Made by a program: the position numbers and the translations under genes. Below the pieces are notes generated by a model. It did not search any database. It was given only the letters and a program-made list of their open reading frames with translations, and was not told the origin of the DNA. A stretch of 64,000 nucleotides of DNA from a virus: IMG/VR virus record IMGVR_UViG_3300020274_000001, positions 32,001-96,000 of that record; one strand, written 5' to 3'. Numbering within the stretch: position 1 is the first letter of the stretch; every line of letters starts with the position of its first letter. Below are positions 21,471 to 59,570 of this stretch, piece by piece.

Positions 21471-21605
21471 GAACCAACCATCATACAAGAATTGCACTAT
21501 GCACGAATGGTTCACAGAGCACGCTATTAATGAGGAACTGCAAAAGCGGCGAATGCTCATAGAACCAAATCAGAGCCAATGTAATATATTTGAAAAGTAA
21601 GGTTC
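21471..21605 (+). ncRNA. TIGR-like guide array, 3 units
   Basis: Spacers TCATACAA/CTATGCAC; TTAATGAG/AAAGCGGC; GAGCCAAT/TTTGAAAA. Confidence 0.85.
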
Positions 21606-21609
21606 ACAG

Positions 21610-21771
21610 ATGACACAAAAAAGTTGTCCGAATTGTGGAAAGGTCTACGAGACCGATTTCCCTACTCGTGAAGAAGCAGTTGCCAATGGTGGCACCGCTA
21701 TTCAAAGAGAGCAACACCAAACAGGAATCTGTTCCGACAAATGTTGGGATGAATTCCTTGGTCTTGCTTGA
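21610..21771 (+). CDS. Small Zn-finger protein
   Basis: CPNCG...CSDKC; ACAG-ATG. Confidence 0.55.
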   Translation: MTQKSCPNCGKVYETDFPTREEAVANGGTAIQREQHQTGICSDKCWDEFLGLA

Positions 21772-21791
21772 AACGGTCTTATGGACCACAG

Positions 21792-22037
21792 ATGTCGAAG
21801 CAAAACGACAAAGCATACACAACCGAAGATATCGGTAAAGAAGTAACGTTGAATATTGATGGCGTTGCTCTCAACGATGTCGTGGTCGAAGTTGCACTAC
21901 CCGGAAGGGGAAGCATCATCGGCCCTACATTTGTGTGCGCTCACATATTTGCTCGTCTGACTATGATGGAGGCCATGATGGCCGCATCAGCACACGCCAA
22001 CCGAGAGCGTGATGATTGGTCAGACGAAATGGCTTGA
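21792..22037 (+). CDS. Hypothetical protein
   Basis: Hairpin-ACAG-ATG. Confidence 0.55.
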   Translation: MSKQNDKAYTTEDIGKEVTLNIDGVALNDVVVEVALPGRGSIIGPTFVCAHIFARLTMMEAMMAASAHANRERDDWSDEMA

Positions 22038-22062
22038 TGCCAGACGGTCCTATGGACCACAG

Positions 22063-22200
22063 ATGAAATGTCCACACTGTGACAAATCTATCGCTGTCCG
22101 GCTTGAACAACCGGGCAAGAAGGCGGCTCGCCGTCGAACTCTTCGTGCCCGTAAGGCAGAGAAGTTGAGAGAAATCCAACCATCTAACGAAGAAGAATGA
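22063..22200 (+). CDS. Small basic CPHC protein
   Basis: Hairpin-ACAG-ATG. Confidence 0.5.
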   Translation: MKCPHCDKSIAVRLEQPGKKAARRRTLRARKAEKLREIQPSNEEE

Positions 22201-22215
22201 CCCAATGGGTCGCAG

Positions 22216-22803
22216 ATGTTCTCTAAAAAAGACATTTATGATGATATGATTGGCAATGCCAGTCCCGATGTTATTCGGTATATGAAGGAATATTACGGTT
22301 CACCCCGTAATTTCTTCAACGAAAATGAGGTAGAGGCTTACAACCCTAAACCTCAAAAGCCGAAAAAGAAAGGCACGGTAATCATCTATCGTGGTTTGCC
22401 CGGAAGTGGCAAATCAACTTCCATCTCTAAAAGGTTCCCGAACGCCGCCGTGTGTTCGGCGGACCACCATTTCTATGGTGAAGATGGAGAATACAATTTC
22501 AAACCATGGGAACTTCCCATGGCACATCAAGAGTGTTACTATAATTTCGTCAACCTTCTCTTCGCTGAAGAGGAATTGGTGATTGTAGACAACACGAATA
22601 TGTGTAGATGGGAGTATATGAATTATGCTCTCCTCGCCCAAAAGATGGGATACAAAGTGAGAATCATTTGCATGGCCCCCGGTCTGCATGATTCGACCTC
22701 TATCCCGACACTCGCCGAGCGAAACAAGCATGGAGTGGATGTTGATACCATCTGCAAAATGCAGTCTCGTTATGAACCCGAGTATGGGGAAGAAATTGAG
22801 TAA
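22216..22803 (+). CDS. P-loop kinase (AAA_33/N4BP2-like polynucleotide kinase)
   Basis: IYRGLPGSGKST, CSADH, VIVDNTN, RNKHGV. Confidence 0.85.
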   Translation: MFSKKDIYDDMIGNASPDVIRYMKEYYGSPRNFFNENEVEAYNPKPQKPKKKGTVIIYRGLPGSGKSTSISKRFPNAAVCSADHHFYGEDGEYNFKPWELPMAHQECYYNFVNLLFAEEELVIVDNTNMCRWEYMNYALLAQKMGYKVRIICMAPGLHDSTSIPTLAERNKHGVDVDTICKMQSRYEPEYGEEIE

Positions 22804-23552
22804 CGGTCCAATGGACCATAGTCTGGTAGTTACGAGGTGGCAATAACCCGCCTTAATCGTCCGAGGGTCGCTCCCTTGGGGCCTCGTAGCAACCTCGCTT
22901 GGGTGGAGGCTTTCCACCGCTTGACTTCCTCGGACTTCGGTCCTTGCCGTTCCCAAGACGGGAGGATTAGGTGGGTGCCAGACATCCAAGCGTAGATTAA
23001 AATGAGTATGAAATCGAAGACGCAGACTTTCGTGGTCTGCATGACTTTGATGATGTTCGGTCTTTTCACGACCGTCATCATGCAACTCGGCTAATGGCCA
23101 CAGAGCAACATGGGTAACAGAGGAAATCCATCACGCAAGTCTCGTTGGAGCGGAAAAGCCCATATTAAGGCTGAAGAGAAGCGAAGACGAAGAGAAGAAG
23201 CAAAACAAGCGATAAGGGAAGCACAAATAGAAAGGGTGGAATGTGAAAACGAAGTAATACTCTACCGAAGAATCCCTATTCGATATGATGGCGTAATACG
23301 CAATCATAATTGATTCTTAACGGCCAATGGCCACAGAAAACTGTTAAAGACAATCCGAAGTATGGAGTGACATGCAAGACTACCAAGTCCGATGCACCGT
23401 TGCGGCCATGCTTTATGTCGGAGGGCAAGTTAAGTCCTACGAAGAAGCATTGAAAATTGCAGACAGCATGTTGAATGCTTCTAAGCAGTATCAAGGTTAA
23501 TCGCACATATGTGCCAAAAAAAACCATAGAACAGGGCACAACATATGTGCCT

Positions 23553-23582
23553 CACGCACACTCATATAATGAAGGAGGAGAG
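23553..23582 (+). promoter_or_regulatory. Conserved promoter-like repeat, copy 3
   Basis: Identical 30-mer. Confidence 0.7.
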
Positions 23583-24716
23583 GACCACCAATCCAGAATC
23601 CTTCATAACCCGAGTGTCGCGGAATACTAATTCCGAATGTCACTCGGGTTAGTGTTATTTCATAGAAGGGAGTTTGCTCGAAGCCGAGCATCCCCACAGA
23701 ATACCTACGTGTAAACCCACAAGTGCCTCTTCGGAGGTTGGCCTAATCAGAGGTCCTCGGCGAAAGCCGACCTAATTGTGGTCTCGTAGGGGACACCACC
23801 CCTCCGGCTTGGCCGGTTGGAGTGTGGATTGTGTGTCTTACCGGGGAGTAGCATGAAGACTCCCAAGGTAGGGCTTGGGTATGGTCCGTTCAAAAGGACC
23901 ATAATGCGCAATTGAACACAAGAAGAAAAAAGACAGGAAAATAGTTTGCCGGTAATCAACCCGGGGCTATGGACGTGTTCGCCTTCGGGCGAAGAAGATG
24001 TGCCGGGAAGAGGAAACCCGGTTGTTCTTGGAAACATTACTGCCGTATTCTGGCTGGCACCAGAAGGAGTAGTGGAGAAAGGAGACCCCCTTGGGGGGAT
24101 ACGGAATCATGCTGGGCCTGCACTAACACTGCGGGGTTCCCGGTGATTCTAACGCGCCTGCGGGTTGATAACCGCAGGCCACCGACCATGACGTGAAAAC
24201 CAAAAGGTCGGCATCTGACACAACCGAGAAATCGGACTTTAGTAGATTAACACTCGAACGAGATTTTCTGAATTGTGGACCTGCCGGTTTAAGACCGGAC
24301 GGGCCGAAAGGTATCAATTGGACTGAGGGACCGCTGAATAAGCGGGTCGGCGTTTTAGTCGTTTACCGAAACAAGGAATGGACACGTATCAACGATAATG
24401 ACTTATCACCAATGAACGTCTTACGGTTAGTTCCGTTCCTGTGAATAACTCAAATGCTCTTGGAGAATGTAGCCGTAAGACGTTAAATTCTCTGTCAATA
24501 GAGCCTCCCCATGCCTCCCCGGATGGACACACGTAGATGATGAACTTATTTCATCCGCCACGCTTTGTGAAAGCAACTACGACAGCAGACAAGGAAGGAA
24601 CATCTTCCTTAACTGCATCATTGAAAGCACTTCACGGCGACATGGTGCGAAGAGGATATCCTCCGAGCACTACAACAACTAAAACAAGAGTGGATTGAAG
24701 TTCACTCTTTTTTTTG
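23571..24716 (+). ncRNA. Putative long structured ncRNA region
   Basis: No credible ORF; many GC stems; ends in hairpin plus T-run. Confidence 0.45.
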
Positions 24717-24779
24717 GGATTCGAAACATAGAATATGAAATTTATTTAGAATGAACGAACTCGAATCTCTTAGGTTAAA

Positions 24780-32206: not shown

Positions 32207-32636
32207 CGATATAACGTGCCCTTGTGGCACATAGGAAGAGGAAGACTGCATTCTGAATGGGTGTGGTCGAGGATATTAGCAGTAATTGTAAAGTCGGTTG
32301 CACCGTTCTCGTTTTACGGACGAGCAAAGAAACAGTTGCGTTGACATGCAGGTGCAATCCCATCCTTAACCACAACTCATGAATGATGTTTCATCAAAAC
32401 ACCCACTTCGAACAAGTTACCAACAGGTGACATGTATTGTGGCAATCTTTTGATGTATCAAGCGGAGACGTAACCGGCGAGTAAGGGGCTGGGTTACGGG
32501 CCTTACGGCCATAGGTTGGACAGGAAGCAGAGAGTGCCGTTTATGTGGTGCATCCCATCCCTTTTCCTGTCCACCACAGAAAATTTGCGTGACATGGCGA
32601 TGCTGAATGGCAATCGTTGTGTCACGTATTTTTTTT

Positions 32637-32680
32637 GGACCGAACCACACTATGCGAACTACATCAAAGCCGCAAGGTCC
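32637..32680 (+). ncRNA. TIGR-like guide unit
   Basis: GGACC/GGTCC stem; CACTATGC/TCAAAGCC. Confidence 0.8.
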
Positions 32681-32945: not shown

Positions 32946-33332
32946 ATGGTATGCGTTACATACATCAAAACCGGTGCAGACACCGGATTGGTCGTGCCGT
33001 ATGATACGGGCGACTACCACACATGGAAAGGGCACGAAGCAGACTTGCTTCTAAAAGACCCTCCGAGAGAACTCTCGGGAATGGAAAAGTGCTACCACGT
33101 TAAGTGGATAAACAAGACGCCTCGAATGACAAATAAGCAAATTATTTCTTCTGAAGAATTTGCCGAAAAGTATGAGGTTAATTGTGAAAGAATTGAAGGA
33201 AATACTCCTACATTCCATGTTACACGAGGTGGCGGATTTACAATCAAAGTCACTAACGGCAATGGGGCTTTTGGCCACTTGGACTATGTCGCACGCCCAC
33301 TTTGGGTAACAGGCGATAAGAGGACTCGTTAG
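32946..33332 (+). CDS. Hypothetical protein
   Basis: Hairpin-ATAG-ATG. Confidence 0.6.
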   Translation: MVCVTYIKTGADTGLVVPYDTGDYHTWKGHEADLLLKDPPRELSGMEKCYHVKWINKTPRMTNKQIISSEEFAEKYEVNCERIEGNTPTFHVTRGGGFTIKVTNGNGAFGHLDYVARPLWVTGDKRTR

Positions 33333-33364
33333 AGTTCATAACCGGTCGATACATCGACCATAGG

Positions 33365-34030
33365 ATGAGAGTCATATGGAATGACGATAAAAGGGCACTA
33401 AGGACACACGAATGTCTATCTGCCCTTTCCATCTACCACGCCTACAAAGAGGCTGGAGATAACTATCTTGACGAAGTCGACGTAGCAAGACAAGGCTATG
33501 TGGTTCGTCGAGATATTCGGAATACCACACCGGCATCTGTATTTGAGGTCTTTACAGAACTCTACCAATCATTGGTGGAAGACATAGACAACCTATACAA
33601 TGACCGAGATGGTTTGCGTCAAAGAATGCAAGAAGGTTCATGGGACCCAATTGACGAATTGATGAATGATGGCCGAATGAAAAACGCTATTGGCGTATTC
33701 CTACAAAGGAAGAACATGATTGTTAATCGTATGCCGGAAAATAAAGCATACGACAAGGCTCGAGATGACTTGAGTTCTGCAATCGAGGATATGAAGGGAT
33801 TCATCGGAGCGTTCCTATCGGATGCTTCACAAACACTCTTGACAGCAATTTCACGAAATGGTTTGAAAGACGGAAAGGACATCGGGGCACTCAAGCCTCG
33901 CGTTCTCGGTCTTGACTGGAGTGGTCTTGTTGTTCGCATTGATGTGGACGAACAGACCATCATGCTGAATGAAGAGAAAGAGAAAGAAGACAAGGACACA
34001 AGTCCTTCGTTTGACCCTTCGTATGGTTGA
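33365..34030 (+). CDS. Hypothetical protein
   Basis: 221-aa ORF. Confidence 0.7.
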   Translation: MRVIWNDDKRALRTHECLSALSIYHAYKEAGDNYLDEVDVARQGYVVRRDIRNTTPASVFEVFTELYQSLVEDIDNLYNDRDGLRQRMQEGSWDPIDELMNDGRMKNAIGVFLQRKNMIVNRMPENKAYDKARDDLSSAIEDMKGFIGAFLSDASQTLLTAISRNGLKDGKDIGALKPRVLGLDWSGLVVRIDVDEQTIMLNEEKEKEDKDTSPSFDPSYG

Positions 34031-34047
34031 CGGCCTTATGGCCATAG

Positions 34048-34245
34048 ATGATGCACACATCATTAGTATGTCCAATCTGTTGTTCTGAACACACCCAAGC
34101 GGTAATGATTGACCCCGGCGAATTATATTTGCCAGACTCCAATCCAAAGCGTATATTCGCTTGTTCAGAATGCGATTGTTCTTGGGAGGTTGAATACTTC
34201 CCTGCGAAGAAGAAGATTCTTCACAAACTCCCGGTCTCTGCATGA
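34048..34245 (+). CDS. Small Zn-ribbon protein
   Basis: CPIC..CSEC. Confidence 0.6.
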   Translation: MMHTSLVCPICCSEHTQAVMIDPGELYLPDSNPKRIFACSECDCSWEVEYFPAKKKILHKLPVSA

Positions 34246-34252
34246 GGCCATA

Positions 34253-34342
34253 GAGCAAAACATGCAGGATGTAATGTTAAAAACACCGTATGCTCATAGA
34301 ACCACAACATATGGCCGGAATTGTATATATGGTGAATGGTTC
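34253..34342 (+). ncRNA. TIGR-like guides, 2 units (degenerate third follows)
   Basis: TGCAGGAT/AAAACACC; TATGGCCG/TATATGGT. Confidence 0.8.
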
Positions 34343-34385
34343 ACAGAGCGAATCGCTTATGGCTGATTGTAACTTGGCAGATAAC

Positions 34386-34667
34386 ATGCCAAGTGCACTA
34401 CAAAAGAAAGTTCAGCCAGTCGGACCCCTTGCAGATATTGTGGGTTCAAAGAAATTAACTCGTGGAGAAATCGTAAAGAAATTATGGGCTCACATTAAGA
34501 AGCACAAACTCCAAGGAGAGAAAGGTGACACCTGTAAATACAACGGTAAGACCTACAAGGGAGGTCAAGTCATTTTCTGCGAGACAGATGAAATGTATGC
34601 ACTTTGTGGCAAAGACAAAATTGCCATGACTGAATTAACAGCAATTGCAAACAAATACATCGACTAA
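34386..34667 (+). CDS. SWIB/MDM2-domain protein
   Basis: LADIVG...TRGEIVKKLWAHIKKHKLQ. Confidence 0.85.
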   Translation: MPSALQKKVQPVGPLADIVGSKKLTRGEIVKKLWAHIKKHKLQGEKGDTCKYNGKTYKGGQVIFCETDEMYALCGKDKIAMTELTAIANKYID

Positions 34668-34693
34668 GTAGACGATATTCAAATCGTCTTAGA

Positions 34694-35134
34694 ATGCCTA
34701 AGACGGCAGACAAAGAAGACGAGGATTCCTATGAGAAGACTCGTGAAGTGATTGGCTCGACTACGAGCGTAATCATAACTCCAGACGGAGAAGACAATGA
34801 GTTCCCAGAAGGAACCATGTGGCTTTACTCCATTGGAATGTATGAAAATTACGGGATACCCGATATCGAAATGAGAGGGGTAGATACTCGATTTGCGAAG
34901 GCCGCAAGTCAAGTAATCAACGAGATGAATGCTTACCGTCTTTTGAACTTGGATAAGCCCATGTTAGTGGGCCAAACCGTTCAATGGAATACTGGTAACT
35001 TCATCATTACTGAATCTGAAGAATGGGATGGAATGTATTCATGGAATGAAGAAACCATGATTCGAATGTCATCTCGTGAAATGGAAATACACTGCACTTC
35101 ATGTCAAATGGAAGATGCAGGAGCAGAGGCTTGA
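34694..35134 (+). CDS. Hypothetical protein (DUF4262-like)
   Basis: YSIGM...GIPDIEMRG. Confidence 0.55.
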   Translation: MPKTADKEDEDSYEKTREVIGSTTSVIITPDGEDNEFPEGTMWLYSIGMYENYGIPDIEMRGVDTRFAKAASQVINEMNAYRLLNLDKPMLVGQTVQWNTGNFIITESEEWDGMYSWNEETMIRMSSREMEIHCTSCQMEDAGAEA

Positions 35135-35143: not shown

Positions 35144-35187
35144 GAACCTAATCATACCTTTTGTAATGCACCATGCGGGCAAGGTTC
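35144..35187 (+). ncRNA. TIGR-like guide unit
   Basis: TACCTTTT/CCATGCGG. Confidence 0.8.
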
Positions 35188-35422: not shown

Positions 35423-35510
35423 GAGCAAACAAATAACCTGTGTTACATAACTTATGAATGCTCATAGAACCGAACCATTACATGGGAAATACACATGGCC
35501 AGAAAGGTTC
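35423..35510 (+). ncRNA. TIGR-like guides, 2 units
   Basis: AATAACCT/TAACTTAT; TTACATGG/CATGGCCA. Confidence 0.85.
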
Positions 35511-35776: not shown

Positions 35777-35818
35777 GAGCAAAACATACCCTCCGAGTTA
35801 CAACTCATGTGTATGCTC
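35777..35818 (+). ncRNA. TIGR-like guide unit
   Basis: TACCCTCC/ACTCATGT. Confidence 0.8.
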
Positions 35819-44994: not shown

Positions 44995-45003
44995 CGGCCA
45001 TAG

Positions 45004-45186: not shown

Positions 45187-45200
45187 AGCACTTGCTCATA

Positions 45201-46464: not shown

Positions 46465-46508
46465 GAACCGAACCAATGCAAATGAAATGCATCTTGCCCG
46501 TATGGTTC
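46465..46508 (+). ncRNA. TIGR-like guide unit
   Basis: ATGCAAAT/TCTTGCCC. Confidence 0.85.
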
Positions 46509-47256: not shown

Positions 47257-47300
47257 GAACCGAACCATGGACGCTGTATTGTATATCCCCCGTGTGGTTC
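47257..47300 (+). ncRNA. TIGR-like guide unit
   Basis: TGGACGCT/TATCCCCC. Confidence 0.8.
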
Positions 47301-47636: not shown

Positions 47637-47681
47637 GAACCTAAACACAGACAAGGAAGTGCATTGAAGCATGAAAGGTTC
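47637..47681 (+). ncRNA. TIGR-like guide unit
   Basis: CAGACAAG/TTGAAGCAT. Confidence 0.8.
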
Positions 47682-48598: not shown

Positions 48599-48687
48599 GA
48601 GCAAAACATGGTGACTGAATTGCAGTTTAAAAGAACGCTCATAGAACCGAACCAAGTCAGATGAATTGTAAAAACGTTGATTGGTTC
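48599..48687 (+). ncRNA. TIGR-like guides, 2 units
   Basis: TGGTGACT/GTTTAAAA; AGTCAGAT/AAAACGTT. Confidence 0.85.
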
Positions 48688-48691: not shown

Positions 48692-49903
48692 ATGAATTGG
48701 CGTGAAGAACACACGCAATGTCTACACCGTAAGAAAGACGGAACCCGTTGTCAACTTGACACGGCTCCCGGAGATTACGTGTGTGGACATCACACCATCG
48801 GTCTCGAAGACATCTTTGAGGACCCGATGGCAGTAGTCGCTAAATTCCGACTATACTTCCCGAAGAATCACCACCCAGCATGTGACAGGAAAGGACAGAA
48901 CGATTGTGATTGTCCAGACCGCACATTTGGGGAACTTCTCGGGCTTGCCTACAAGCGAGCCGCAATCACCAGCCTGCAAAGGACAAGGTTGCACCGAGCA
49001 ATGGTTCGAGCGGAAATGCGAGACAGGACTCGATTGATTCGAGCCTATTACAACTCGATAACGGAAGACGACTTGTGGTTAGGAATGCCTAACCCCAAGT
49101 GGCGACAAATTCGATACTTCGTATGGAACGATAATGAGGAGCGAATGATAGTGAAGAAGCACGATAGAAGCATAAGAACAAAGAAACAATTGCTTGACCT
49201 GCTACGACGCGAAGCACCTCATCACGTTTACTACACCACCTCACAATGGAGAAATCCAGCAGAGGTTGGTCCCGACCCGTTCTCTAAATCGGGTCGAGAC
49301 AAATACATCAAGAAGAATGCAAAGAGACTTGCTAAGAAGGAAGGCTCGAAAGACAAAGGTCGTATCAAAGCATTGATGCATCCTGTGTCGAAGTGGTCAG
49401 ATTATGGCAACGCATTCATTGAACAGGAACTCTATTTCGACGTTGATTACGAAATGGAAACTTTCCAAGAGTCAGCCGAAGAAACATTGAGGTTGGCTGA
49501 ATTCTATGAGACCGTAGAATTTGCAGACTGTGAGAAAGACATACGATTTGTCTTCTCTGGTGGCAAAGGGTTTCACATGATTGATTACGGATTCAGTATC
49601 CGAAGAGCCGTTGGTGAGAAAAACTACGGCACGAGAATCAAGAACATATTGGAAGGTGAAAAGGCAAGGAGTGGACTGATGAAAGGTCACGCCTTCGCCG
49701 CCATGAAGATAAGTCGTAACGTTAAGAAGCGACTCATCAAGAAAATCAGAAAGAAAGGAATCCTACTTGATTACGAAGTGACCGTCGACCCTCGACGAAT
49801 CATTCGACTACCCGGTTCAATACACGGAAAACGTGGACGGGTTTGTAGATTGATAACCAAAGAGGACTTGACGGATTTCGACCCCGGACCTACCTTATGG
49901 TAA
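48692..49903 (+). CDS. Archaeo-eukaryotic primase small subunit-like (AEP) with N-terminal Zn motif
   Basis: ELYFDVD, FSGGKGFH, D..VT.D..RIIRLPGS.H. Confidence 0.85.
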   Translation: MNWREEHTQCLHRKKDGTRCQLDTAPGDYVCGHHTIGLEDIFEDPMAVVAKFRLYFPKNHHPACDRKGQNDCDCPDRTFGELLGLAYKRAAITSLQRTRLHRAMVRAEMRDRTRLIRAYYNSITEDDLWLGMPNPKWRQIRYFVWNDNEERMIVKKHDRSIRTKKQLLDLLRREAPHHVYYTTSQWRNPAEVGPDPFSKSGRDKYIKKNAKRLAKKEGSKDKGRIKALMHPVSKWSDYGNAFIEQELYFDVDYEMETFQESAEETLRLAEFYETVEFADCEKDIRFVFSGGKGFHMIDYGFSIRRAVGEKNYGTRIKNILEGEKARSGLMKGHAFAAMKISRNVKKRLIKKIRKKGILLDYEVTVDPRRIIRLPGSIHGKRGRVCRLITKEDLTDFDPGPTLW

Positions 49904-49915: not shown

Positions 49916-50374
49916 ATGGTAAACATCTACACAGATGGTGCCTGTATCAACAATGGACTACCAGATGCCAAAGGAGGCATGGGTGTGTTCAGTCAAGAAA
50001 TGGACCTTGAGTTGTCCATACCGTGGGAGATGGAAGTCGAACCTACGAATCAAAGATGCGAAATGGGAGCAGTAGTATACGCTCTTATCGCAATCAAGAA
50101 GACTGAACCAAGTCAAGATACGGTTTTTCAGATTCTAAGTGATTCTGAATACGTTGTTAAAGGAATGAATGAATGGATGAAACAGTGGAAGAACCGTGGC
50201 TGGAAGACAGCCAAGGGAAAGGAAGTAAAAAACCGCTGGCTTTGGGAATTGCTTGATTCGCAATCCAAAGGACTCAACGTCATTTACAAACATGTTCGAG
50301 GACACTCTGGTGTTCTCGGCAACGAAAAAGCAGACTCGCTTGCGCTGTCTGCTGCTGAATCGTTAAAGTTGTGA
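49916..50374 (+). CDS. rnhA: Ribonuclease HI (second copy)
   Basis: IYTDGAC, TNQRCEM, SDSEY, HVRGHSG..GNEKAD. Confidence 0.92.
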   Translation: MVNIYTDGACINNGLPDAKGGMGVFSQEMDLELSIPWEMEVEPTNQRCEMGAVVYALIAIKKTEPSQDTVFQILSDSEYVVKGMNEWMKQWKNRGWKTAKGKEVKNRWLWELLDSQSKGLNVIYKHVRGHSGVLGNEKADSLALSAAESLKL

Positions 50375-51588: not shown

Positions 51589-51632
51589 GAACCGAACCAG
51601 AGAAAATGAATCACAATCAAAGTGAACGGTTC
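51589..51632 (+). ncRNA. TIGR-like guide unit
   Basis: GAGAAAAT/ATCAAAGT. Confidence 0.85.
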
Positions 51633-51636
51633 ACAG

Positions 51637-51813
51637 ATGGTCACAGACCCCAAAAAAGGACAATGCCCGACATGCGGGCGTTTAACGCTGATATATATTG
51701 ACAGCGAAGTGCACACAGAATGGTGCGAAAAATGCGGGTGGGAACACACCGTCAGTTGGAATGAATTAAGCCCCGACTGGTGGCACAAACAATCAAACAA
51801 ACCGAGCGAGTAA
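51637..51813 (+). CDS. Small Zn-ribbon protein
   Basis: CPTC..CEKC. Confidence 0.6.
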   Translation: MVTDPKKGQCPTCGRLTLIYIDSEVHTEWCEKCGWEHTVSWNELSPDWWHKQSNKPSE

Positions 51814-51821
51814 GGCTCATA

Positions 51822-51865
51822 GAACCGAATCATAACTCGGGAATTACAAATCACCTGTATGGTTC
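51822..51865 (+). ncRNA. TIGR-like guide unit
   Basis: TAACTCGG/AATCACCT. Confidence 0.85.
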
Positions 51866-51869
51866 ACAG

Positions 51870-52196
51870 ATGGATGACAATGAAGACATCATCAGAATTG
51901 CCTCAATGTGGTATCCCTTTGTGGGGGACATAAAGGCAAGACTCGCTATTGGCTTGGAAACATACGGCCATGGCGTGCGTGTCGAAGATGACACAACTCA
52001 ATGGGGCACAGAGGTAAACTCTTGGCTCGAAATGGGATTAGAGGAAATCGATGACTTGGCAATCTATGTCATGGCACAACTCCTCCGAGAAAAAAAGAAA
52101 AACTACGACAACTTGAATGAATTCGCTGGTATACTCAAAGAATTGAGAGACACCAGAAGAAGAATCATGGAAGTCATGTTAAGAGAAGACGCTTGA
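51870..52196 (+). CDS. Hypothetical protein (dimeric all-alpha NTP-PPase-like)
   Basis: G...YG...W..M..EE..D..IY. Confidence 0.55.
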   Translation: MDDNEDIIRIASMWYPFVGDIKARLAIGLETYGHGVRVEDDTTQWGTEVNSWLEMGLEEIDDLAIYVMAQLLREKKKNYDNLNEFAGILKELRDTRRRIMEVMLREDA

Positions 52197-52204
52197 GCGT
52201 CATA

Positions 52205-52250
52205 GAATCAAATCAAAAAGTCGGTATTTTAGACACCACGAGTATGATTC
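52205..52250 (+). ncRNA. TIGR-like guide unit (covariant stem GAATC/GATTC)
   Basis: AAAAGTCG/GACACCACGA. Confidence 0.75.
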
Positions 52251-52288
52251 ACAGTAATCTATAAATTATACATAGTATACGCTATACT

Positions 52289-52498
52289 ATGTCGAGGGTC
52301 GCTAATTGTGCCGTGAGAATCATGGAGCAACACAGTGGCCCGCTTTCTATTTACGAAATACACGCAAGAATGAAAGAGCAAATGAGGAATGTCCCAAAAG
52401 TAGGAGTCCTTGCTCGCAAACTTGGCGGTTGTGACGATATCAGAAGAGTAGGTTACGGTCAGCCATCTATGTGGGTATTGAAGCCGTCACGCTCATAA
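52289..52498 (+). CDS. Small winged-helix (DUF3860-like) protein
   Basis: GPLSIYEI....RNVP....L...L....I. Confidence 0.55.
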   Translation: MSRVANCAVRIMEQHSGPLSIYEIHARMKEQMRNVPKVGVLARKLGGCDDIRRVGYGQPSMWVLKPSRS

Positions 52499-52524
52499 AG
52501 CAGTGACCTTCGGATGCCAATTAG

Positions 52525-52776
52525 ATGGCCCAGATGAATGCCAAGATTAAGGCAATTCCAGAAAGTTCTACGAGAACAGAAAAGGAAATTAAGGACATGC
52601 TTAGACAGGCTGTTCTCACTCGTAACAATTGGCTTGAAGCGTTTGAAAGTTGCAAACAGTTTCAAGACCGACACGGCATGATGGATGCCGCGAGGAACGC
52701 TAAAGCACTTGAAGGCGTTATCAAAACTTTACGTTGGACCCTTGGAGAAAGGGGTATCAACAATCCGCTCTCATGA
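52525..52776 (+). CDS. Hypothetical protein
   Basis: RN.KALEGVIKTLRWTLG. Confidence 0.6.
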   Translation: MAQMNAKIKAIPESSTRTEKEIKDMLRQAVLTRNNWLEAFESCKQFQDRHGMMDAARNAKALEGVIKTLRWTLGERGINNPLS

Positions 52777-52785
52777 AAGAGCATA

Positions 52786-52829
52786 GAACCAAACTAATTC
52801 ACTCGTATTACAAAAGATGCGAATGGTTC
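52786..52829 (+). ncRNA. TIGR-like guide unit
   Basis: ATTCACTC/AAAGATGC. Confidence 0.8.
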
Positions 52830-52833
52830 ACAG

Positions 52834-53121
52834 ATGAACATTGAGAACATCAATGAACTGCAAGAGCAATACGGCCTTGCAGAATGGCAACGGATGATTA
52901 ATGACGGAAGTTGCTGGACCCTTGAGGGTTGGTATGGTAGAAGAGCAGTGGCATTACTCGAGATGGGTGCCTGCTATTTGCCAGAAGAACCACATCACGA
53001 TTACTACGGTAACCAAGTGCCAGCGAGGCACATGCTACAAGCGGGAACAAAAGGAACGCTTGAATTGAGTCAGACCTTCTGGTCTGACGAAAGCAATTAC
53101 GGATTGTTTGAGGAAGAATAA
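52834..53121 (+). CDS. Hypothetical phage-type protein
   Basis: WQ.MI..G..W.LEGWYGR.A. Confidence 0.65.
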   Translation: MNIENINELQEQYGLAEWQRMINDGSCWTLEGWYGRRAVALLEMGACYLPEEPHHDYYGNQVPARHMLQAGTKGTLELSQTFWSDESNYGLFEEE

Positions 53122-53288
53122 GGTCATATTGACCATAGATGCCTAATTCACAAAAAGGTAGAGAGGCCATACTGGGCCTTAATAATTTGAGAGAGAACAA
53201 TAGACTACTCCGAATTCAAAATAGAATGATACAGACTCTTATTGACGAGATTAGAGATATCAGAAGAAGAGGCTTGTGATGCCTCATA

Positions 53289-53330
53289 GAGCAAAACACA
53301 GGGCATGAATTGCAGGGGAACGGTATGCTC
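53289..53330 (+). ncRNA. TIGR-like guide unit
   Basis: CAGGGCAT/GGGGAACG. Confidence 0.85.
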
Positions 53331-53334
53331 ACAG

Positions 53335-53703
53335 ATGGAAGTATCATTTGATACAGATTACGGCCTACAATGGTTTAGAGCCGAAGCGTCTGCTCTCTCT
53401 TACGAGAAGCGACGACATCTATACGACAAAATCTCTCGATGGGAGTATATGGCCAAGAACGGTCCTCAAGGTTGGGCTCACGCCCAAGGCGAGGCCGCAA
53501 GAGAGTTGAGCCGTCGTCCTTTAACGGGACACATGAGAGAATTGTTAATTGAAATCAAAGGAATAGCATGGGTCGAAGAAACCGACTATGCGCACCTAAG
53601 AAAAAAACAAAAGGAAGAAAGAGAAAGGTTAGAACGCAAACAGAAACAGGAAGCCTACTTCGCTAAACTTGATTCTGCGCTTGACGACCTTTTGAAAGAG
53701 TAA
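53335..53703 (+). CDS. Hypothetical protein
   Basis: ACAG-ATG. Confidence 0.6.
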   Translation: MEVSFDTDYGLQWFRAEASALSYEKRRHLYDKISRWEYMAKNGPQGWAHAQGEAARELSRRPLTGHMRELLIEIKGIAWVEETDYAHLRKKQKEERERLERKQKQEAYFAKLDSALDDLLKE

Positions 53704-53721
53704 GGAGGAATACCTCCATAG

Positions 53722-54303
53722 ATGGTGAAAAACACCTTCAAAATTGTGGCTGTCGTCAAAGAGGAAAACAAGCAATTGATTTGGGACCTCTTACAAATTG
53801 CACTAAAGCATGACGACATCTATTTTGCATTTGAGGAAGGCAAGCCCTCCGAAATAATGCATAAACCAGCCGACATCAAAAAACTGTCGAAAAAGAAGAA
53901 GAAACCGGAGAAACCTACTCTATCAAGAAAGGAAGTATCCAAGTTGACCAAAGAAAGCATGAAGAAACTCAAAGCAGAGAAACGTGTTTTCACTGGAGCA
54001 GTATTCGGTTGGGATAATCAAAAAGATGGCACAATGAAGCCAAACTGGAAAGAACAAGAAACCATAGACATGATGCGATACTTTTACTACGAAAAGAAGC
54101 AATCATTCTCTTTTATTGCGAAGTGGCTCAATGCCAACGACGTAAAGGGAAAGCGTGGTGGAAAGTGGCAAAGTTCGGGAGTATCAAGAGTCGTTCACAA
54201 CGACTTCCATGCTTCTCGAAATGACTTCAAGAAACCTAAGTGGTTTTTGAAGAAGACCTATCCAGAAATGACATGGGGTAAGAACCCAAAAATCGTCTCG
54301 TAA
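53722..54303 (+). CDS. Serine-recombinase DNA-binding domain protein (no catalytic domain)
   Basis: FGW...EQETI..M...S..FIAKWLN...KRGGKW....V. Confidence 0.7.
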   Translation: MVKNTFKIVAVVKEENKQLIWDLLQIALKHDDIYFAFEEGKPSEIMHKPADIKKLSKKKKKPEKPTLSRKEVSKLTKESMKKLKAEKRVFTGAVFGWDNQKDGTMKPNWKEQETIDMMRYFYYEKKQSFSFIAKWLNANDVKGKRGGKWQSSGVSRVVHNDFHASRNDFKKPKWFLKKTYPEMTWGKNPKIVS

Positions 54304-54311
54304 GGGACATA

Positions 54312-54402
54312 GAGCAAAACAAGTCGTGGGTATTGCACATATTCCATGTATGCTCATAGAACTGAATCAATAAGGTTGTATTGCAATTGGCCAAAAAGGT
54401 TC
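54312..54402 (+). ncRNA. TIGR-like guides, 2 units
   Basis: AGTCGTGG/CATATTCCAT; ATAAGGTT/ATTGGCCA. Confidence 0.8.
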
Positions 54403-54406
54403 ACAG

Positions 54407-54634
54407 ATGGATGTTAAAGAACTACATCAATATGTCTCGCAACTGCGAGAATACATTGTGACGCTTGAGCGTCGCATTGCTACACTTGAAAAACAAGTGA
54501 ATCCGCCACAGACCAAGGACCTTGGTAACGGGCGGAGAACGTTCACACGTTCAGGTATCAACAACCTGCTCGACGGAATGATTGGGAGGCACCGAAAGGA
54601 CCCCGTCACCGGAGAGTGGCACAAAGTGAATTAG
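54407..54634 (+). CDS. Hypothetical coiled-coil protein
   Basis: ACAG-ATG. Confidence 0.6.
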   Translation: MDVKELHQYVSQLREYIVTLERRIATLEKQVNPPQTKDLGNGRRTFTRSGINNLLDGMIGRHRKDPVTGEWHKVN

Positions 54635-54648
54635 GCCAATAGGCCATA

Positions 54649-54692
54649 GAACCTAAACACAAGAAGGGAATTACATGAGCCCCGAATGGTTC
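54649..54692 (+). ncRNA. TIGR-like guide unit
   Basis: CAAGAAGG/TGAGCCCC. Confidence 0.85.
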
Positions 54693-54696
54693 ACAG

Positions 54697-55212
54697 ATGT
54701 CTGTAAAAGAATACGTGCAGATACGTGCTGACCAATACAAACAGCATGACAACGTCTGGGGGGATTTACCCCGAGATGCGCCAATTAGATTGGCTGATAT
54801 CTTTGAATGGATATTACAGAATGGACAAACCTTTAGCGGGACCAATATGGATGCCGCTGATGAAATTGTCGAGCATTCTTTTCGTGCACCAGAAATAAAG
54901 GCGTGCTACCATAATGCGTTTTTAGTCCCCCCAGAAGTAAGATACTTCGAGGGATGGTGGGCAGGAATTATTCCTGTCGAACATGCGTGGAATGTCGTAG
55001 ACGACAAAGTCGCTGATGTAACGCTCACTATTGAGCAACATCGTGAACGAGCGTTGAGAGACAGACAAGAATACTTTGGAATTGAAATTCCAAGGGATTG
55101 GATGTGGAAGCAAGTAAGTAAAGGAACACACTTTAGGCCAGAAGGCTCGAGTGGTCCTTTCATCTACGACTACGTTATGGAGCAAATCGCAAAAGAACGA
55201 GAAGAGGAATAA
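54697..55212 (+). CDS. Hypothetical protein (transglutaminase-like Cys-His-Asp)
   Basis: CYHNA..Y.EG...EHAWNV....DVT. Confidence 0.65.
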   Translation: MSVKEYVQIRADQYKQHDNVWGDLPRDAPIRLADIFEWILQNGQTFSGTNMDAADEIVEHSFRAPEIKACYHNAFLVPPEVRYFEGWWAGIIPVEHAWNVVDDKVADVTLTIEQHRERALRDRQEYFGIEIPRDWMWKQVSKGTHFRPEGSSGPFIYDYVMEQIAKEREEE

Positions 55213-55221
55213 TTCCTCATA

Positions 55222-55310
55222 GAGCAAAACATGATACCAGCATTACAGCCAATCCGAATGCTCATAGAACCGAATCAAGTTTCACGTATGGCAAGTTCGT
55301 CGTATGGTTC
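55222..55310 (+). ncRNA. TIGR-like guides, 2 units
   Basis: TGATACCA/GCCAATCC; AGTTTCAC/AGTTCGTC. Confidence 0.85.
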
Positions 55311-55314
55311 ACAG

Positions 55315-55731
55315 ATGGCATTAACATGTCCAGATTGCGGTCAAGAGACCGCTTATGTGCGTGTCGGCATTTACGTCGACCCACATGACACAAGTGTCGA
55401 GGCCCTGTCTGAACAGGTCAGCGACATCATAGGCACAGGACCGGAAGACTTCGACGACGAACTTCCTACGGTCTGTGCAGAGTGCGAATGCCAAGTCCCA
55501 TACAGACTTGCATTTGCCGCCACTGTAAGAAAGCAGGCTCACAAGAATGACGAAGAAGCGGCAATGGCTTACCGTCATGCGCTTGCTGGAGTTGTCCATT
55601 TCTTTGGACGCCTACCAATCGCCGAAAATGAGGCTTGGACAGAGGACCAGCATGAAGCCTATGAAGCAACACACCGTTTGTTCGCTGTTCTTGATGAACC
55701 CGAACAAGACGAAACCTCGGAAGAGGAATGA
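55315..55731 (+). CDS. Zn-ribbon hypothetical protein
   Basis: CPDC..CAEC. Confidence 0.6.
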   Translation: MALTCPDCGQETAYVRVGIYVDPHDTSVEALSEQVSDIIGTGPEDFDDELPTVCAECECQVPYRLAFAATVRKQAHKNDEEAAMAYRHALAGVVHFFGRLPIAENEAWTEDQHEAYEATHRLFAVLDEPEQDETSEEE

Positions 55732-55932
55732 CGGCCTTACGGCCATAGATGGCATGGAAAGATGACATTTGGAGATTGGCTAATCAGTTAAATCTCGAGT
55801 ATAAGCGTGATATGTGGTCTCCCGTTCACGCTTTTAATGCAATCGTAGCAGAACTTGAACGTCTTCGTGATGAAGACCTTTCAGACTGTTACATTACACC
55901 CGATAGTTAATCGGTCGGCCCTGCGGCCATAG

Positions 55933-56580: not shown

Positions 56581-56668
56581 GAGCAAACAAGCCATCCGAA
56601 ATATACAAAATGTGAAGGCTCATAGAACCCAATCAAGTGATTTGAAATACAGGAAATTTGAATGGTTC
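56581..56668 (+). ncRNA. TIGR-like guides, 2 units
   Basis: AGCCATCC/CAAAATGT; AGTGATTT/GGAAATTT. Confidence 0.85.
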
Positions 56669-57341: not shown

Positions 57342-57430
57342 GAGCGAATCATTCAGCCTGTATTGCACAGCCTAAGAACGCTCATAGAACCGAACCATCA
57401 TTGAGGAATTACAAAACACCAGAATGGTTC
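57342..57430 (+). ncRNA. TIGR-like guides, 2 units
   Basis: TTCAGCCT/CAGCCTAA; TCATTGAG/AAACACCA. Confidence 0.85.
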
Positions 57431-57434
57431 ACAG

Positions 57435-57815: not shown

Positions 57816-57825
57816 AAGGACCATA

Positions 57826-57915
57826 GAGCAAAAACATCGTCTCTGAAATGCACAAGAAAGGAATGCTCATAGAACCAAATCAAGCATGCTGAATTGCAGG
57901 TGATTCGTAAGGTTC
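57826..57915 (+). ncRNA. TIGR-like guides, 2 units
   Basis: TCGTCTCT/CAAGAAAG; AGCATGCT/GGTGATTC. Confidence 0.85.
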
Positions 57916-57921
57916 ACAGAA

Positions 57922-58569
57922 ATGCGTTATTTCAAAAATTATGACGACGCTTGGAGTTATCTCCAAAGAGGTCGAAACATCGAGAAGGGGAGACCTATCG
58001 GTGCGCACACCAGAATTTACAAACGTAAAGATGGAACAATAGCAATCAGATATCACAGCACTGATATTGTTCGCTATTACAAGCATAAGAACGGAAAGCA
58101 ATGGATGTCATTTGACAACGAGGGATGGACCTCCACGACAACATTGCAAAGACTGCATTACGTCATGCCCAATGGCATAGGCGTCGATACGAGTCTAAAC
58201 CGATTCATAGGACAGTGGTTTACCAGATGTAACGGTGAATTATACAACCTAAACCATCACGTAAAATTCGATGAAAATCTTAACGTAAAAAACAAGAAAC
58301 AGATGTCTCTGAAAACGATGGACAATATCAGTGATGCTGGGACAAGAATAAGAAAATTGTTAGCATCATCATTGAGTTCAATTGAAAGAGATGTTTCAAA
58401 GAAGAGGCAAGAAAATGCCGAACTCTCCTACGAGAGAATTCAACTTCGTGGCGAAATAATGGCTTTCGAAGAAATGAGAGAAACACTTCGTGGAGAAGTA
58501 GGATACTTGTTGAAACTAAAGAAGGGCGACACCGATAATGGTGCAAAAGACGTCCTCAACAGGGTGTAA
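57922..58569 (+). CDS. Hypothetical phage-type protein
   Basis: IRYH.T.IV...GW...TT..RL. Confidence 0.65.
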   Translation: MRYFKNYDDAWSYLQRGRNIEKGRPIGAHTRIYKRKDGTIAIRYHSTDIVRYYKHKNGKQWMSFDNEGWTSTTTLQRLHYVMPNGIGVDTSLNRFIGQWFTRCNGELYNLNHHVKFDENLNVKNKKQMSLKTMDNISDAGTRIRKLLASSLSSIERDVSKKRQENAELSYERIQLRGEIMAFEEMRETLRGEVGYLLKLKKGDTDNGAKDVLNRV

Positions 58570-58577
58570 TGCCCATA

Positions 58578-58780
58578 GAGCGAAACATCGAACCCGAATT
58601 ACATTGAACCCGTAATTCGCTCATAGAGCGATAGGTCATAGGACTAAACCATAACAAAAGAAATACAAGAGGTCTGAAAAGTCCATAGAGCAAACAACAA
58701 CGAAGAACTGTATACAATTAGAATGCTCATAGAACCGAACCACACCAAATATGCCGAATTACAGGGTGGCAGAATGGTTC
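58578..58780 (+). ncRNA. TIGR-like guide array, 4 units
   Basis: TCGAACCC/TTGAACCC; TAACAAAA/AGAGGTCT; ACAACGAA/TACAATTA; AATATGCC/GGGTGGCA. Confidence 0.85.
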
Positions 58781-58784
58781 ACAG

Positions 58785-59168
58785 ATGTCAGACGACATAC
58801 AATACGTCATGGCCAGAATTAAGGCCATGGAAGATGTGAGAAAGAATCTCGCATCTGCGATAAAGAAAGACAAAGAATATGTCAGAGAAACAATGGGTGA
58901 AAGGGAAGTCTTGGAGACCCCAGCCTTCACTGCAAAGATTGTTACTCGGACTTCAACACGATTGTTGGGGATAGAACATATTCGTAACCTATTAGGGTCG
59001 ACAACCGTGGATAAAATCACGAAGACGTCGGAATCTAAGTCGCTGTCAATCAAAGAAACGTTGGCTAATTTTGAACCGTTCGAAGTCGAAGACCTCGAAT
59101 TAGTTCCAGATTGGGCCAAGTCTGCCGCTATTACGCTACAAGTGAGGGAATTACTTGGCGAGAATTAG
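58785..59168 (+). CDS. Hypothetical protein, paralog of 57435
   Basis: ACAG-ATG. Confidence 0.6.
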   Translation: MSDDIQYVMARIKAMEDVRKNLASAIKKDKEYVRETMGEREVLETPAFTAKIVTRTSTRLLGIEHIRNLLGSTTVDKITKTSESKSLSIKETLANFEPFEVEDLELVPDWAKSAAITLQVRELLGEN

Positions 59169-59427
59169 GCGAGCATCGGACAGATATCATACTCAAATCG
59201 AAACGATATTGAGAGAAAAAGGTCCGCTTGTTGCTTATGACATCCGTCAAGCAATGGTTGGGCGTTGGAAAAACGTCCCTACTCCGAATCAACTCGGAAA
59301 CCTATTAGCGAAAAACAAGAACATTAAATCATTAGGACCGGGACACAAAAAATCGTTCTCGGCTCTACTCGATGGTTCTGGCACAGGAGGTGTAAACCTC
59401 TGGGCTTTGGTTGAACAAGGGGATTGA
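59155..59427 (+). CDS. DUF3860-like winged-helix protein
   Basis: GPL..YDI...VPTPNQLGNLLAK..NI...G...LWAL. Confidence 0.65.
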   Translation: MARIRRASDRYHTQIETILREKGPLVAYDIRQAMVGRWKNVPTPNQLGNLLAKNKNIKSLGPGHKKSFSALLDGSGTGGVNLWALVEQGD

Positions 59428-59434
59428 CCCCATA

Positions 59435-59570
59435 GAGCAAAACAGGCACGGTGAAATACATAGGACACGTATGCTCATAGAACCAAAACACTTTGTCGGT
59501 ATTGCATACTTGTAGTGTGGTTCACAGAATCGAATCAAGTATACAGTATTGTAGAACAAAAGAATGATTT
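59435..59570 (+). ncRNA. TIGR-like guide array, 3 units
   Basis: GGCACGGT/TAGGACAC; CTTTGTCG/TACTTGTA; AGTATACA/GAACAAAA. Confidence 0.85.

Follow-up and report, generated by a model that had tools for sequence, protein, structure and literature searches.

A predicted nuclease-free Tas protein and candidate dual-spacer guide RNAs dispersed between the genes of a viral genome

The tasA Gene and Its Product

The subject of this work is a 64,000-nucleotide stretch of viral DNA (bases 32001-96000 of the record IMGVR_UViG_3300020274_000001; hereafter, the window), on which a gene for a Tas-type protein, tasA, is followed by a co-oriented block of ~45 small genes with short, doubly variable units dispersed between them. 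The viral genome as a whole is 140,336 bp long and has direct terminal repeats; coordinates given below are those of the window unless the genome is named. An earlier note on this DNA, made from the sequence alone, took the units for TIGR-like guide RNAs and pointed to the product of the following gene as a Nop-domain protein that might bind them.

20046-21083, + strand: tasA, coding for a 345-amino-acid Tas protein with a coiled coil and a Nop-type domain (profile, AF2 model, Foldseek)

Pfam returned no match for the 345-residue protein. Homologues numbered 2,523 at E<=0.001 among 4,171 candidates, and some of them are annotated with PF02371 (the IS110-type C-terminal domain). When a profile of 33 homologues was compared with the PDB, matches to TasR (9mty, E 2.1e-21) and TasH (3.9e-8) were obtained, together with weaker ones to IS621 (9e-6) and ISCro4. 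The AlphaFold (AF2) model of the protein (pLDDT 85.5, pTM 0.83) retrieved nothing but TasH and TasR chains among its top 10 Foldseek matches, each with probability 1.0; IS110-family recombinases came next. Since the matches span the coiled coil and the Nop-type domain alone, the protein, as judged from its profile and predicted structure, is TasA, the form of Tas protein that has no nuclease domain, which agrees with the assignment made in the earlier note.

At residues ~120-150 (20403-20495), TasA has a Cys-rich insertion with four Cys and a His, possibly zinc-binding, which sits between a helix-hairpin-helix motif and the next helix. The insertion is common to many, not all, TasA homologues, including those that adjoin ordinary arrays.

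Anatomy and Number of the Dispersed Units

A unit is ~44 nt long and reads, as RNA, CAUA, a stem strand (GAACC or GAGC), RAAHCA, eight variable nucleotides (N8), GWAWURCA, a second N8, GWAW, the stem complement and AYAG. There are two main stem types, A (GAACC/GGTTC) and B (GAGC/GCTC), and rarer compensatory stems besides. Both halves of the unit begin with GWAW and end with (R/H)CA in a pseudo-symmetric arrangement. Expressed in the terms used for TIGR guides, box C is NCA (CCA, TCA, ACA or GCA), box D is a lone G and the motif at the stem base is AYAG. The interior is a direct repeat, with CA-N8-G present twice in one orientation and no mirror image, an arrangement expected of an RNA that a symmetric dimer holds, not of a palindromic DNA site.

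Several search patterns were used to count the units. The strict core GWAWTRCA-N8-GWAT occurs 13 times, always on the + strand, against 0.12 occurrences expected from shuffles. A stem-anchored regular expression (regex) found 37 + strand units at 21469-59524 and a single - strand match that is probably due to chance. An anatomy regex run over all 140,336 bp gave 40 + strand matches, every one at genome positions 53471-91523 (window 21471-59523), of which the match at window 45275 was judged spurious; six of its seven - strand matches are reverse readings of partly palindromic + strand units. A covariance model trained on 39 units produced 46 matches at E<=1 in a search with filters off, all of them on the + strand, and its weak matches were then read by eye. 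The final tally is 46 units at 29 sites, with one to four units per site, all on the + strand between 21471 and 59570; three of the 46 (24716, 54359 and 59527) are degenerate. The sites are listed below.

21471-21605, + strand: site 1, A 21471-21513, B 21517-21558 and A 21562-21605; ACAG, ATG 21610 (anatomy regex, covariance model)
24716-24769, + strand: site 2, degenerate unit directly after T8; TTAG, 6 nt, ATG 24780 (covariance model, E 0.017)
32637-32680, + strand: site 3, compensatory stem GGACC/GGTCC directly after T8 (32629-32636); TTAG, ATG 32685 (covariance model)
34253-34342, + strand: site 4, B+A pair (anatomy regex, covariance model)
35144-35187, + strand: site 5, A; ACAG, ATG 35192 (anatomy regex)
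35423-35510, + strand: site 6, B+A; ATG 35515 (anatomy regex)
35777-35818, + strand: site 7, single B, missing from relative L158 (anatomy regex, relative alignment)
35925-36011, + strand: site 8, B+A; ATG 36017; one different unit stands here in the 98.6%-identical relative L127
37801-37844, + strand: site 9, A; ATG 37849 (anatomy regex)
40466-40509, + strand: site 10, A; ATG 40514 (anatomy regex)
41810-41899, + strand: site 11, B+A; ATG 41904 (anatomy regex)
42128-42171, + strand: site 12, A; ATG 42176 (anatomy regex)
46465-46508, + strand: site 13, A; ATG 46514 (anatomy regex)
47257-47300, + strand: site 14, A; ATAG, ATG 47305; precisely missing from relative L115 (anatomy regex, relative alignment)
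47637-47681, + strand: site 15, A; ATG 47686 (anatomy regex)
48599-48687, + strand: site 16, B+A; ATG 48692 of a primase-like gene (anatomy regex)
51589-51632, + strand: site 17, A; ATG 51637 (anatomy regex)
51822-51865, + strand: site 18, A; ATG 51870 (anatomy regex)
52205-52250, + strand: site 19, compensatory stem GAATC/GATTC; ACAG then TAA, no gene start (covariance model, E 4e-8)
52786-52829, + strand: site 20, A; ATG 52834 (anatomy regex)
53289-53330, + strand: site 21, B directly before ACAG, ATG 53335 (anatomy regex)
54312-54402, + strand: site 22, B and degenerate A (GAACT/GGTTC, box D G changed to A); ATG 54407
54649-54692, + strand: site 23, A; ATG 54697 (anatomy regex)
55222-55310, + strand: site 24, B+A; ATG 55315; in a close strain's RNA-library contig it is mainly the spacers that differ
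56581-56668, + strand: site 25, B+A; ATG 56674 (anatomy regex)
57342-57430, + strand: site 26, B+A; ATG 57435; B missing from relative L090 (anatomy regex, relative alignment)
57826-57915, + strand: site 27, B+A; ATG 57922 (anatomy regex)
58578-58780, + strand: site 28, four units: 58578-58622 (7-bp stem GAGCGAA/TTCGCTC), 58641-58684 (GGACT/AGTCC), B 58688-58728 and A 58737-58780; ATG 58785
59435-59570, + strand: site 29, B 59435-59476, A 59480-59523 and a weaker unit 59527-59570 (GAATC/GATTT); no gene after

The first site begins 388 nt past the tasA stop codon, and no more than four units stand in a row anywhere. Type A units usually abut a start codon, with type B usually just upstream of a type A unit; at 24-25 of the 29 sites AYAG is followed by the ATG of an open reading frame (ORF) within 0-3 nt. 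At 77 related loci, 262 raw matches were reduced to 216 unique, correctly flanked units, and here too type A runs into a start codon (ACAGATG in 100 of 137 cases, ATAGATG in 8). The two variable segments measure 8+8 nt in 177 of the 216; among 177 units of the window's relatives, all eight positions of both segments carry no more than 0.2 bit of information outside registration artefacts. Rfam gave no match at gathering score over the window (two chance-level matches at E<=1 fell in 51.5-59.6 kb), and a tRNA scan gave no match.

The description in the earlier note holds up well at this level. Its count of ~45 units at 28 loci was close to what regexes, covariance model and hand check now give, the covariance model being one that it had proposed (its - strand yield at E<=1 was zero); alignments reproduce its consensus and its two stem types; and the variability of the ~8-nt segments between conserved linkers, the placement between genes and mostly against start codons, and the layout of a tigRNA as the TIGR papers describe it (a box C ending in CA, a spacer and a box D G, twice over, closed by a stem) were all found.

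Closing Stems

The pairing of the stems was examined with matches anchored on the unit interior only. A contiguous stem of at least 4 bp closes 180 of 215 such matches (window plus 77 related loci); the others are register shifts or belong to about the 11 expected by chance. The stem was GAACC/GGTTC in 112 cases and GAGC/GCTC in 55, and the compensatory forms GAATC/GATTC, GGGCC/GGCCC, GGACC/GGTCC, GGACT/AGTCC and GAGCGAA/TTCGCTC were also present, within the window at 52205, 58641, 32637 and 58578. Changes on both sides were counted at four of the five pairs in rows that had been preselected for pairing, and the percentage of paired rows is therefore no independent evidence. Minimum-energy folds of the units include the closing stems. 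RNAalifold predicted no structure on a mixed alignment of A and B units because the two stem types were misaligned, and the stem was then specified by hand. We conclude that the closing stems are real: the units have a palindromic stem with covariation, as stem-loop TIGR systems do.

Start Grammar and Extent of the Gene Block

Nearly every + strand gene between ~15 and 59 kb of the window is headed by a hairpin, AYAG and ATG in the absence of a Shine-Dalgarno sequence. GGAGG-type sites precede the genes of other genome regions, i.e., one genome uses two start grammars. Two kinds of hairpin occur at the junction, guide units and GC-rich mini-hairpins (stem of 4-7 bp, loop of 3-6 nt); the gene tasA itself is preceded by a hairpin, CCAG and ATG. 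Genome-wide, a mini-hairpin followed by AYAG and ATG occurs at 33 + strand sites, 31 of them in window 15-56 kb, and at none of the 111 AYAG+ATG sites of the - strand. Units, too, are preceded by a mini-hairpin and AUAG, which makes the junction identical on both sides.

32942-55935, + strand: ~20 guide-less mini-hairpins, each followed by AYAG and ATG, with the junction grammar of the units
32946, 34048, 39302, 44033, 47975, 48347, 51109, 53722, 55749 and 55933, + strand: example mini-hairpin sites
59573-59618, + strand: long GA-rich hairpin followed by T9, likely the terminator of the co-oriented block, as read from the sequence

Over 15146-55935 of the + strand, guide-less mini-hairpins front ~30 genes devoid of a Shine-Dalgarno sequence.

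Between 32637 and 59609 the + strand has no T>=7 run and a single T6. T8 runs stand directly before two units, at 24708-24715 and 32629-32636. The lack of T>=7 between the ends of the block suggests one very long transcription unit. A search anchored on the primase found one 42%-identical relative, L087, where the hairpin-AYAG grammar was not found.

Block genes are mostly small ORFs without a family match; the exceptions are the primase-like gene, an RNase H gene, an RHH protein and a recombinase-domain ORF. Inside the block, the interval 45000-46460 has no genes of the AYAG type; it contains A8 and A9 runs (oligo-T on the - strand) and possible short - strand ORFs.

Relatives and Turnover of Units

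Marine metagenome contigs show the dispersed pattern, in the same organisation, on at least 189 stretches; no match came from the viral contig collection, a set from which the window's own record was possibly excluded. The DNA of several unit-bearing contigs encodes TasA homologues 67-96% identical to that of the window. In all, 249 unit instances fall into 218 guide families.

Alignment of relatives to the window yielded 78 unit-relative pairs, in 47 of which the unit is retained (motif mismatch <=25%); 44 were binned by the third-codon-position divergence of their flanks. In the bin below 10%, which holds 13 unit pairs with a mean of 5.4%, 91 of 208 spacer positions (43.8%) differ, ~8 times the value for neighbouring synonymous sites, and the differences out of 16 are bimodally distributed over the 13 pairs (0, 0, 0, 5, 8, 8, 9, 9, 10, 10, 10, 10 and 12). 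In the next bins, with third-position divergences of 13.9% and 30.3%, spacers diverge by 44.3% and 44.5%. Spacer divergence is thus flat across bins, i.e., saturated, which indicates replacement and not gradual drift. Such a pattern fits guides under changing selection.

The same alignments revealed that units are present or absent exactly at the shared, duplicated CATAG junction, or are swapped for other units. Guides are shared (<=2/16 differences) by 21 relative/window pairs, against 0.008 by chance; 13 of these pairs are syntenic, six are non-syntenic (9-24 kb away in window coordinates) and two are unmapped. In relative L157, tasA (91% identical; window 20044-21085) lies between genes that are found at 34.0 kb in the window (33226-34694), and gene order has therefore been shuffled between strains, with breakpoints at hairpin junctions.

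Homologues Beside Ordinary Arrays and Loss of the Processing Pair

A single-protein tasA search of viral contigs retrieved nothing; relatives were found by an alignment-based search. Eighty viral loci (L001-L080) encode proteins 36-47% identical to TasA, and at 60 of the 80 the gene adjoins a dual-repeat TIGR array of 34-36-nt, GA-rich repeats that end in CCA and are followed by eight variable nucleotides and a G. The CA-N8-G spacing is therefore a family trait. The earlier note had taken spacers of 8 instead of 9 nt for the mark of a variant; the 36-nt homologue-side arrays also have CCA-N8-G, and SpTIGR has 16 nt of spacer in total, so that this part of its interpretation does not stand. The homologues' arrays differ from the window system in being tandem runs of 3-16 units beside the gene. 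The window units are separated by genes, and their edge repeat is divided in two and lengthened to form a stem with a CATAG junction.

According to PMC13421893 and 10.64898/2026.09.09.750476, the precursor in dual-repeat systems is cut by the Tas protein itself, through a Tyr and a His residue (Y289 and H296 in SpTasH). In an alignment to the hidden Markov model (HMM), these two residues map to a P-Y-x5-7-G-H consensus of the homologues. Distant homologues retain both Tyr and His and a middle group has Phe...His; in the window TasA and in relatives 67-99% identical to it, this position is occupied by Q-[AT]-F-F ... [SA]-E-[NT]. TasA C-termini translated from unit-bearing metagenome contigs likewise lack the pair in six of six distinct cases, reading Q[AT]FF..[SA][EDS][NTS]. 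By sequence, then, the clade of the window TasA has lost the Tyr/His processing pair that marks the dual-repeat clade. Loss of the pair is reported for stem-loop TIGR systems in 10.64898/2026.09.09.750476.

Generic finders were of no help at other Tas loci: a stem-loop tigRNA finder returned noise (55 window matches vs 36 in a shuffle), and a box C/D grid was likewise swamped.

The Virus and Other Genes of the Window

The genome encodes a family B DNA polymerase, an RNA polymerase large subunit, MCM, primases and a group II chaperonin. Since a gene set of this kind is described for 'magrovirus group D' in PMC5434244, the virus is, by gene content, a marine archaeal virus of the 'magrovirus group D' type. 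Genes recognised in the window, other than tasA, are as follows.

3157-6219, + strand: family B DNA polymerase
6529-11523, - strand: RNA polymerase large-subunit homologue, 1,664 aa, with all five Rpb1 domains (Pfam)
12379-12837, - strand: RNase H gene, outside the punctuated block
19378-20013, + strand: HD-domain ORF directly upstream of tasA, with a mini-hairpin in front (weak Pfam HD_4 match, E 0.005)
48692-49903, + strand: primase-small-subunit-like gene, inside the block
49916-50374, + strand: RNase H gene, inside the block
53722-54303, + strand: recombinase-domain ORF (Pfam, E 2.6e-5)
59635-60957, - strand: primase-small-subunit-like gene, outside the block
61789-63987, - strand: MCM helicase

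The ORFs scanned with Pfam yielded no second large subunit of RNA polymerase. The HD-domain ORF (ATG 19378) was considered as a nuclease partner of TasA and rejected, as its motifs resemble those of SpoT/RelA-type hydrolases, which we take to be their family; to judge by these motifs, it probably encodes an alarmone hydrolase.

No close host is indicated by the viral group II chaperonin (genome 16367-17899), whose best match among 301 Thermoplasmatota-centred genomes is 46% identical; a comparison of this thermosome with genome contigs gave proteins at most 44% identical, from many archaeal and some bacterial lineages.

Proposed Mode of Action and Its Alternatives

We consider it probable, with real room for doubt, that the window carries a virus-borne TIGR-Tas system of the nuclease-free TasA kind whose guides are dispersed outside any array. 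The block would be transcribed as one or a few long RNAs, its 32.64-59.6 kb stretch being free of T>=7 tracts and bounded by T8 at one end and by the hairpin with T9 at the other. The RNA would be cut at AYAG after every stem, at the junction that guide units and mini-hairpins have in common, and the cutting would have to fall to some other nuclease, of host or virus, because the TasA clade has no Tyr/His pair with which to process the RNA itself. Such cuts would free ~44-50-nt guide RNAs and leave mRNAs that begin 0-3 nt before the AUG, i.e., leaderless mRNAs. A TasA dimer would hold the pseudo-symmetric guide by the nucleotides of box C (..CA) and box D (G). Directed by the two 8-nt spacers to opposite strands of a 16-bp DNA site, it would leave host or rival DNA uncut but block its transcription or replication. 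TasA proteins elsewhere are guide-dependent DNA binders and RNA-guided transcription repressors, as described in 10.64898/2026.09.09.750476, and by analogy guide-dependent DNA binding and repression is the likeliest activity of TasA here. A further-reaching version, which we offer as a tentative possibility, would have guide production and mRNA maturation as one process, each AYAG cut giving both a guide and a leaderless mRNA, and the units as mobile cassettes that furnish strain-specific repertoires silencing host or rival DNA.

A number of observations weigh against this account. The motifs of the units depart from the published sets, with NCA in place of CNA (the box C set of TIGRFinder), G alone as box D and AYAG instead of CUU. 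Folds of the units are not unusually stable (z +0.04 to -2.46), as is usual for RNAs that depend on a protein. In the turnover comparison, conserved scaffold positions differ by 10.6% against 5.4% in the flanks, which resembles exchange of whole units, and turnover could come from recombination between repeated scaffolds rather than from selection on guides. Contigs from marine RNA libraries (runs X1, X2 and X4; one of them oligo-dT) cover parts of 51.5-59.6 kb in closely related strains; being assembled contigs, possibly with DNA carry-over, they are silent on ends, strand and small RNAs, and the parts they leave uncovered are uninformative. Some of them join distant units (51615 to 55931, 53294 to 55254), which reflects either rearranged strains or assembly jumps across repeats.

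Target searches count on the same side. A self-target search of the 140-kb genome with 38 guides, in two orientations, with gaps of 0-4 and up to three mismatches, gave no excess over permuted pairings; 203 guides, with gaps of 0-2, had no exact match in 1.65 Mb of viral DNA from relatives and from other viruses with Tas genes (controls, 0-3). The enrichment of 16-nt target matches that the earlier note had put forward as a check did not, accordingly, emerge in either orientation in the viral DNA searched, and the binding or repression of host or competitor targets that it proposed is kept here as a conditional role only. Single spacers compared with the surrounding +-400 nt gave no excess of cis-pairing over controls. 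One conserved guide, in a single orientation (reverse complement of A, gap 0-2, B), had no match in 101 archaeal genomes, those of the order to which the genome with the best chaperonin match belongs; a search with one guide in one orientation carries little weight.

Two further points of this kind bear on a possible promoter function of the units. The A/T-rich loop is 22-29 nt ahead of the ATG, the distance expected of an archaeal TATA box, and a T8 run that could terminate upstream transcription stands directly before each of the units at 24716 and 32637. On such a reading, GWAWTRCA is a TATA-like box ~26 nt before a leaderless start (the loop at -29 to -22 relative to the ATG), AYAG the initiator, the palindromic ends a site for a dimeric regulator and N8 mere spacing, and the virus does have an RNA polymerase large subunit of its own. 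We find it very unlikely, given that changes in the stems are compensatory and preserve pairing rather than sequence, that the interior is a direct repeat with no palindrome, and that ~20 block genes have a GC-rich mini-hairpin alone with no A/T-rich box. Type B units would, moreover, fire into type A units, spacer A fills the position of a BRE-like element, which is accordingly not conserved, and the link to a Tas protein is left without a reason.

Another possibility, improbable in our view though to be taken seriously, is that the units act only in cis and punctuate the RNA as signals for its processing, its stability or the start of translation, perhaps with TasA as a chaperone; N8 would then be length-constrained filler with no target in trans. 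The 33 guide-less mini-hairpins have the same CATAG ... AYAG-ATG flanks and the same pre-gene position as the units, block genes do without the Shine-Dalgarno sequence when genes elsewhere have GGAGG, and the searches run found no targets. Yet a mini-hairpin is evidently enough for punctuation, so the architecture of box C, spacer and box D needs some other reason, and this architecture copies the CCA-N8-G spacing of the arrays beside TasA homologues. Filler of this sort also sits poorly with segments of 8+8 nt in 177 of 216 units that hold almost no sequence information, and neither the units at 52205 and 59527, which no gene follows, nor the type B units, which stand upstream of type A and not at an ATG, are placed as start signals.

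It is, finally, hardly likely that the block is a cassette array in which the hairpin-CATAG elements serve for recombination, much as attC does in integrons, with the units as one class of site or as small mobile insertions. Precise presence or absence of units at duplicated CATAG, identical guides at non-syntenic sites, gene order that varies among relatives with breakpoints at units (as with L157 tasA between the 34.0-kb genes), the RNA-library contigs that join distant units, and a one-direction run of small ORFs of no known function together with the recombinase-domain ORF at 53722-54303 (Pfam E 2.6e-5) can all be read in this way. Ordinary homologous recombination among ~46 near-identical scaffolds explains the same patterns, however; Pfam recognised no integrase of a known cassette system in the ORFs scanned, and the dual-spacer box C/D interior and its match to TIGR arrays go unexplained. 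Movement of cassettes is in any case compatible with the dispersed TIGR-TasA system that we favour and does not exclude it.

Comparison with Known Systems

The window has the features by which TIGR-Tas systems are recognised in its protein, with coiled coil and Nop-type domain, and in its two pseudo-symmetric spacers, each preceded by a box C and followed by a box D; there is no head-to-tail array beside the tas gene, the 46 units being spread over 29 sites in 38 kb. With stem-loop TIGR-TasA systems (PMC12045711 and 10.64898/2026.09.09.750476) it has in common a nuclease-free Nop-domain protein without the Tyr/His processing loop and occurrence in viruses, archaeal viruses included. In those systems, too, units can be spread out, upstream, downstream or in sub-arrays hundreds of nt apart; here no array exists, ~45 genes stand between units and most units abut a start codon. 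The window units also differ in their 4-5-bp stems, NCA box C and lone-G box D, and the stem base has CAUA on its 5' side and AYAG on its 3' side rather than the CUU of the stem-loop clade. By sequence, the window TasA appears to group with the homologues of dual-repeat arrays and not with the described stem-loop clades.

Archaeal box C/D sRNAs are Nop-domain guide RNAs with two guide segments that are scattered over the genome, often abut or overlap ORF ends and are co-transcribed; they have RUGAUGA and CUGA boxes, a k-turn and 10-12-nt guides. The window units resemble them in their two guide segments, scattered positions and contact with ORFs. Unlike them, the units have no RUGAUGA or CUGA boxes in the alignments, no k-turn (AU and not GA abuts the stem), no Rfam match and guides of 8 nt, and no fibrillarin or L7Ae is encoded in view. 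IS110-family bridge RNAs (structures 8wt6 and 9t56, among the lower-rank matches) share with the window system a homologous RNA-binding domain and split guide segments; the window system differs in having no DEDD/RuvC or catalytic serine domain and no element ends, and its units are 44 nt long with one loop pair.

In mitochondria, tRNAs punctuate polycistronic transcripts, and Cas6-type enzymes cleave at the base of repeat hairpins. The likeness would be that structured RNAs between genes set the cleavage sites that release a small RNA and mRNAs; by this analogy, the punctuating RNA here would be a guide RNA, not a tRNA, and cleavage is a proposal.

Significance

The novelty of this locus lies in a TIGR-TasA variant that is dispersed and gene-punctuating, and not in the 8-nt spacer. 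The literature searched, including passages of PMC5434244 and PMC11706807, yielded no account of TIGR elements from magroviruses, and the TIGRSafari resource may already list the family; five metagenome contig names and the phrase 'marine metagenome' are absent from four supplementary files of PMC12045711. According to the preprint 10.64898/2026.09.09.750476, one branch of Tas proteins occurs in compact viral genomes where arrays are not detectable. Dispersed guides are one answer to how such an array-less branch could work, and the window offers a concrete model of it. TIGR systems have been defined and detected by their arrays, and guides placed in ~50-nt intergenic gaps are a layout for which array finders are not designed.

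The locus also bears on how TIGR spacers turn over, as guide cassettes are gained, lost and moved exactly at the CATAG junction. Self-contained, stem-closed guides of 44 nt that tolerate any genomic context could serve engineering. For the biology of these abundant, uncultured archaeal viruses of the ocean, the system would tie a guide-RNA machinery to the grammar of gene expression and provide a case for the natural use of nuclease-free TIGR. If the proposed mechanism is true, it would be a guide-RNA version of tRNA punctuation in which, through the swapping of units between intergenic sites, each viral strain would carry a different repertoire.

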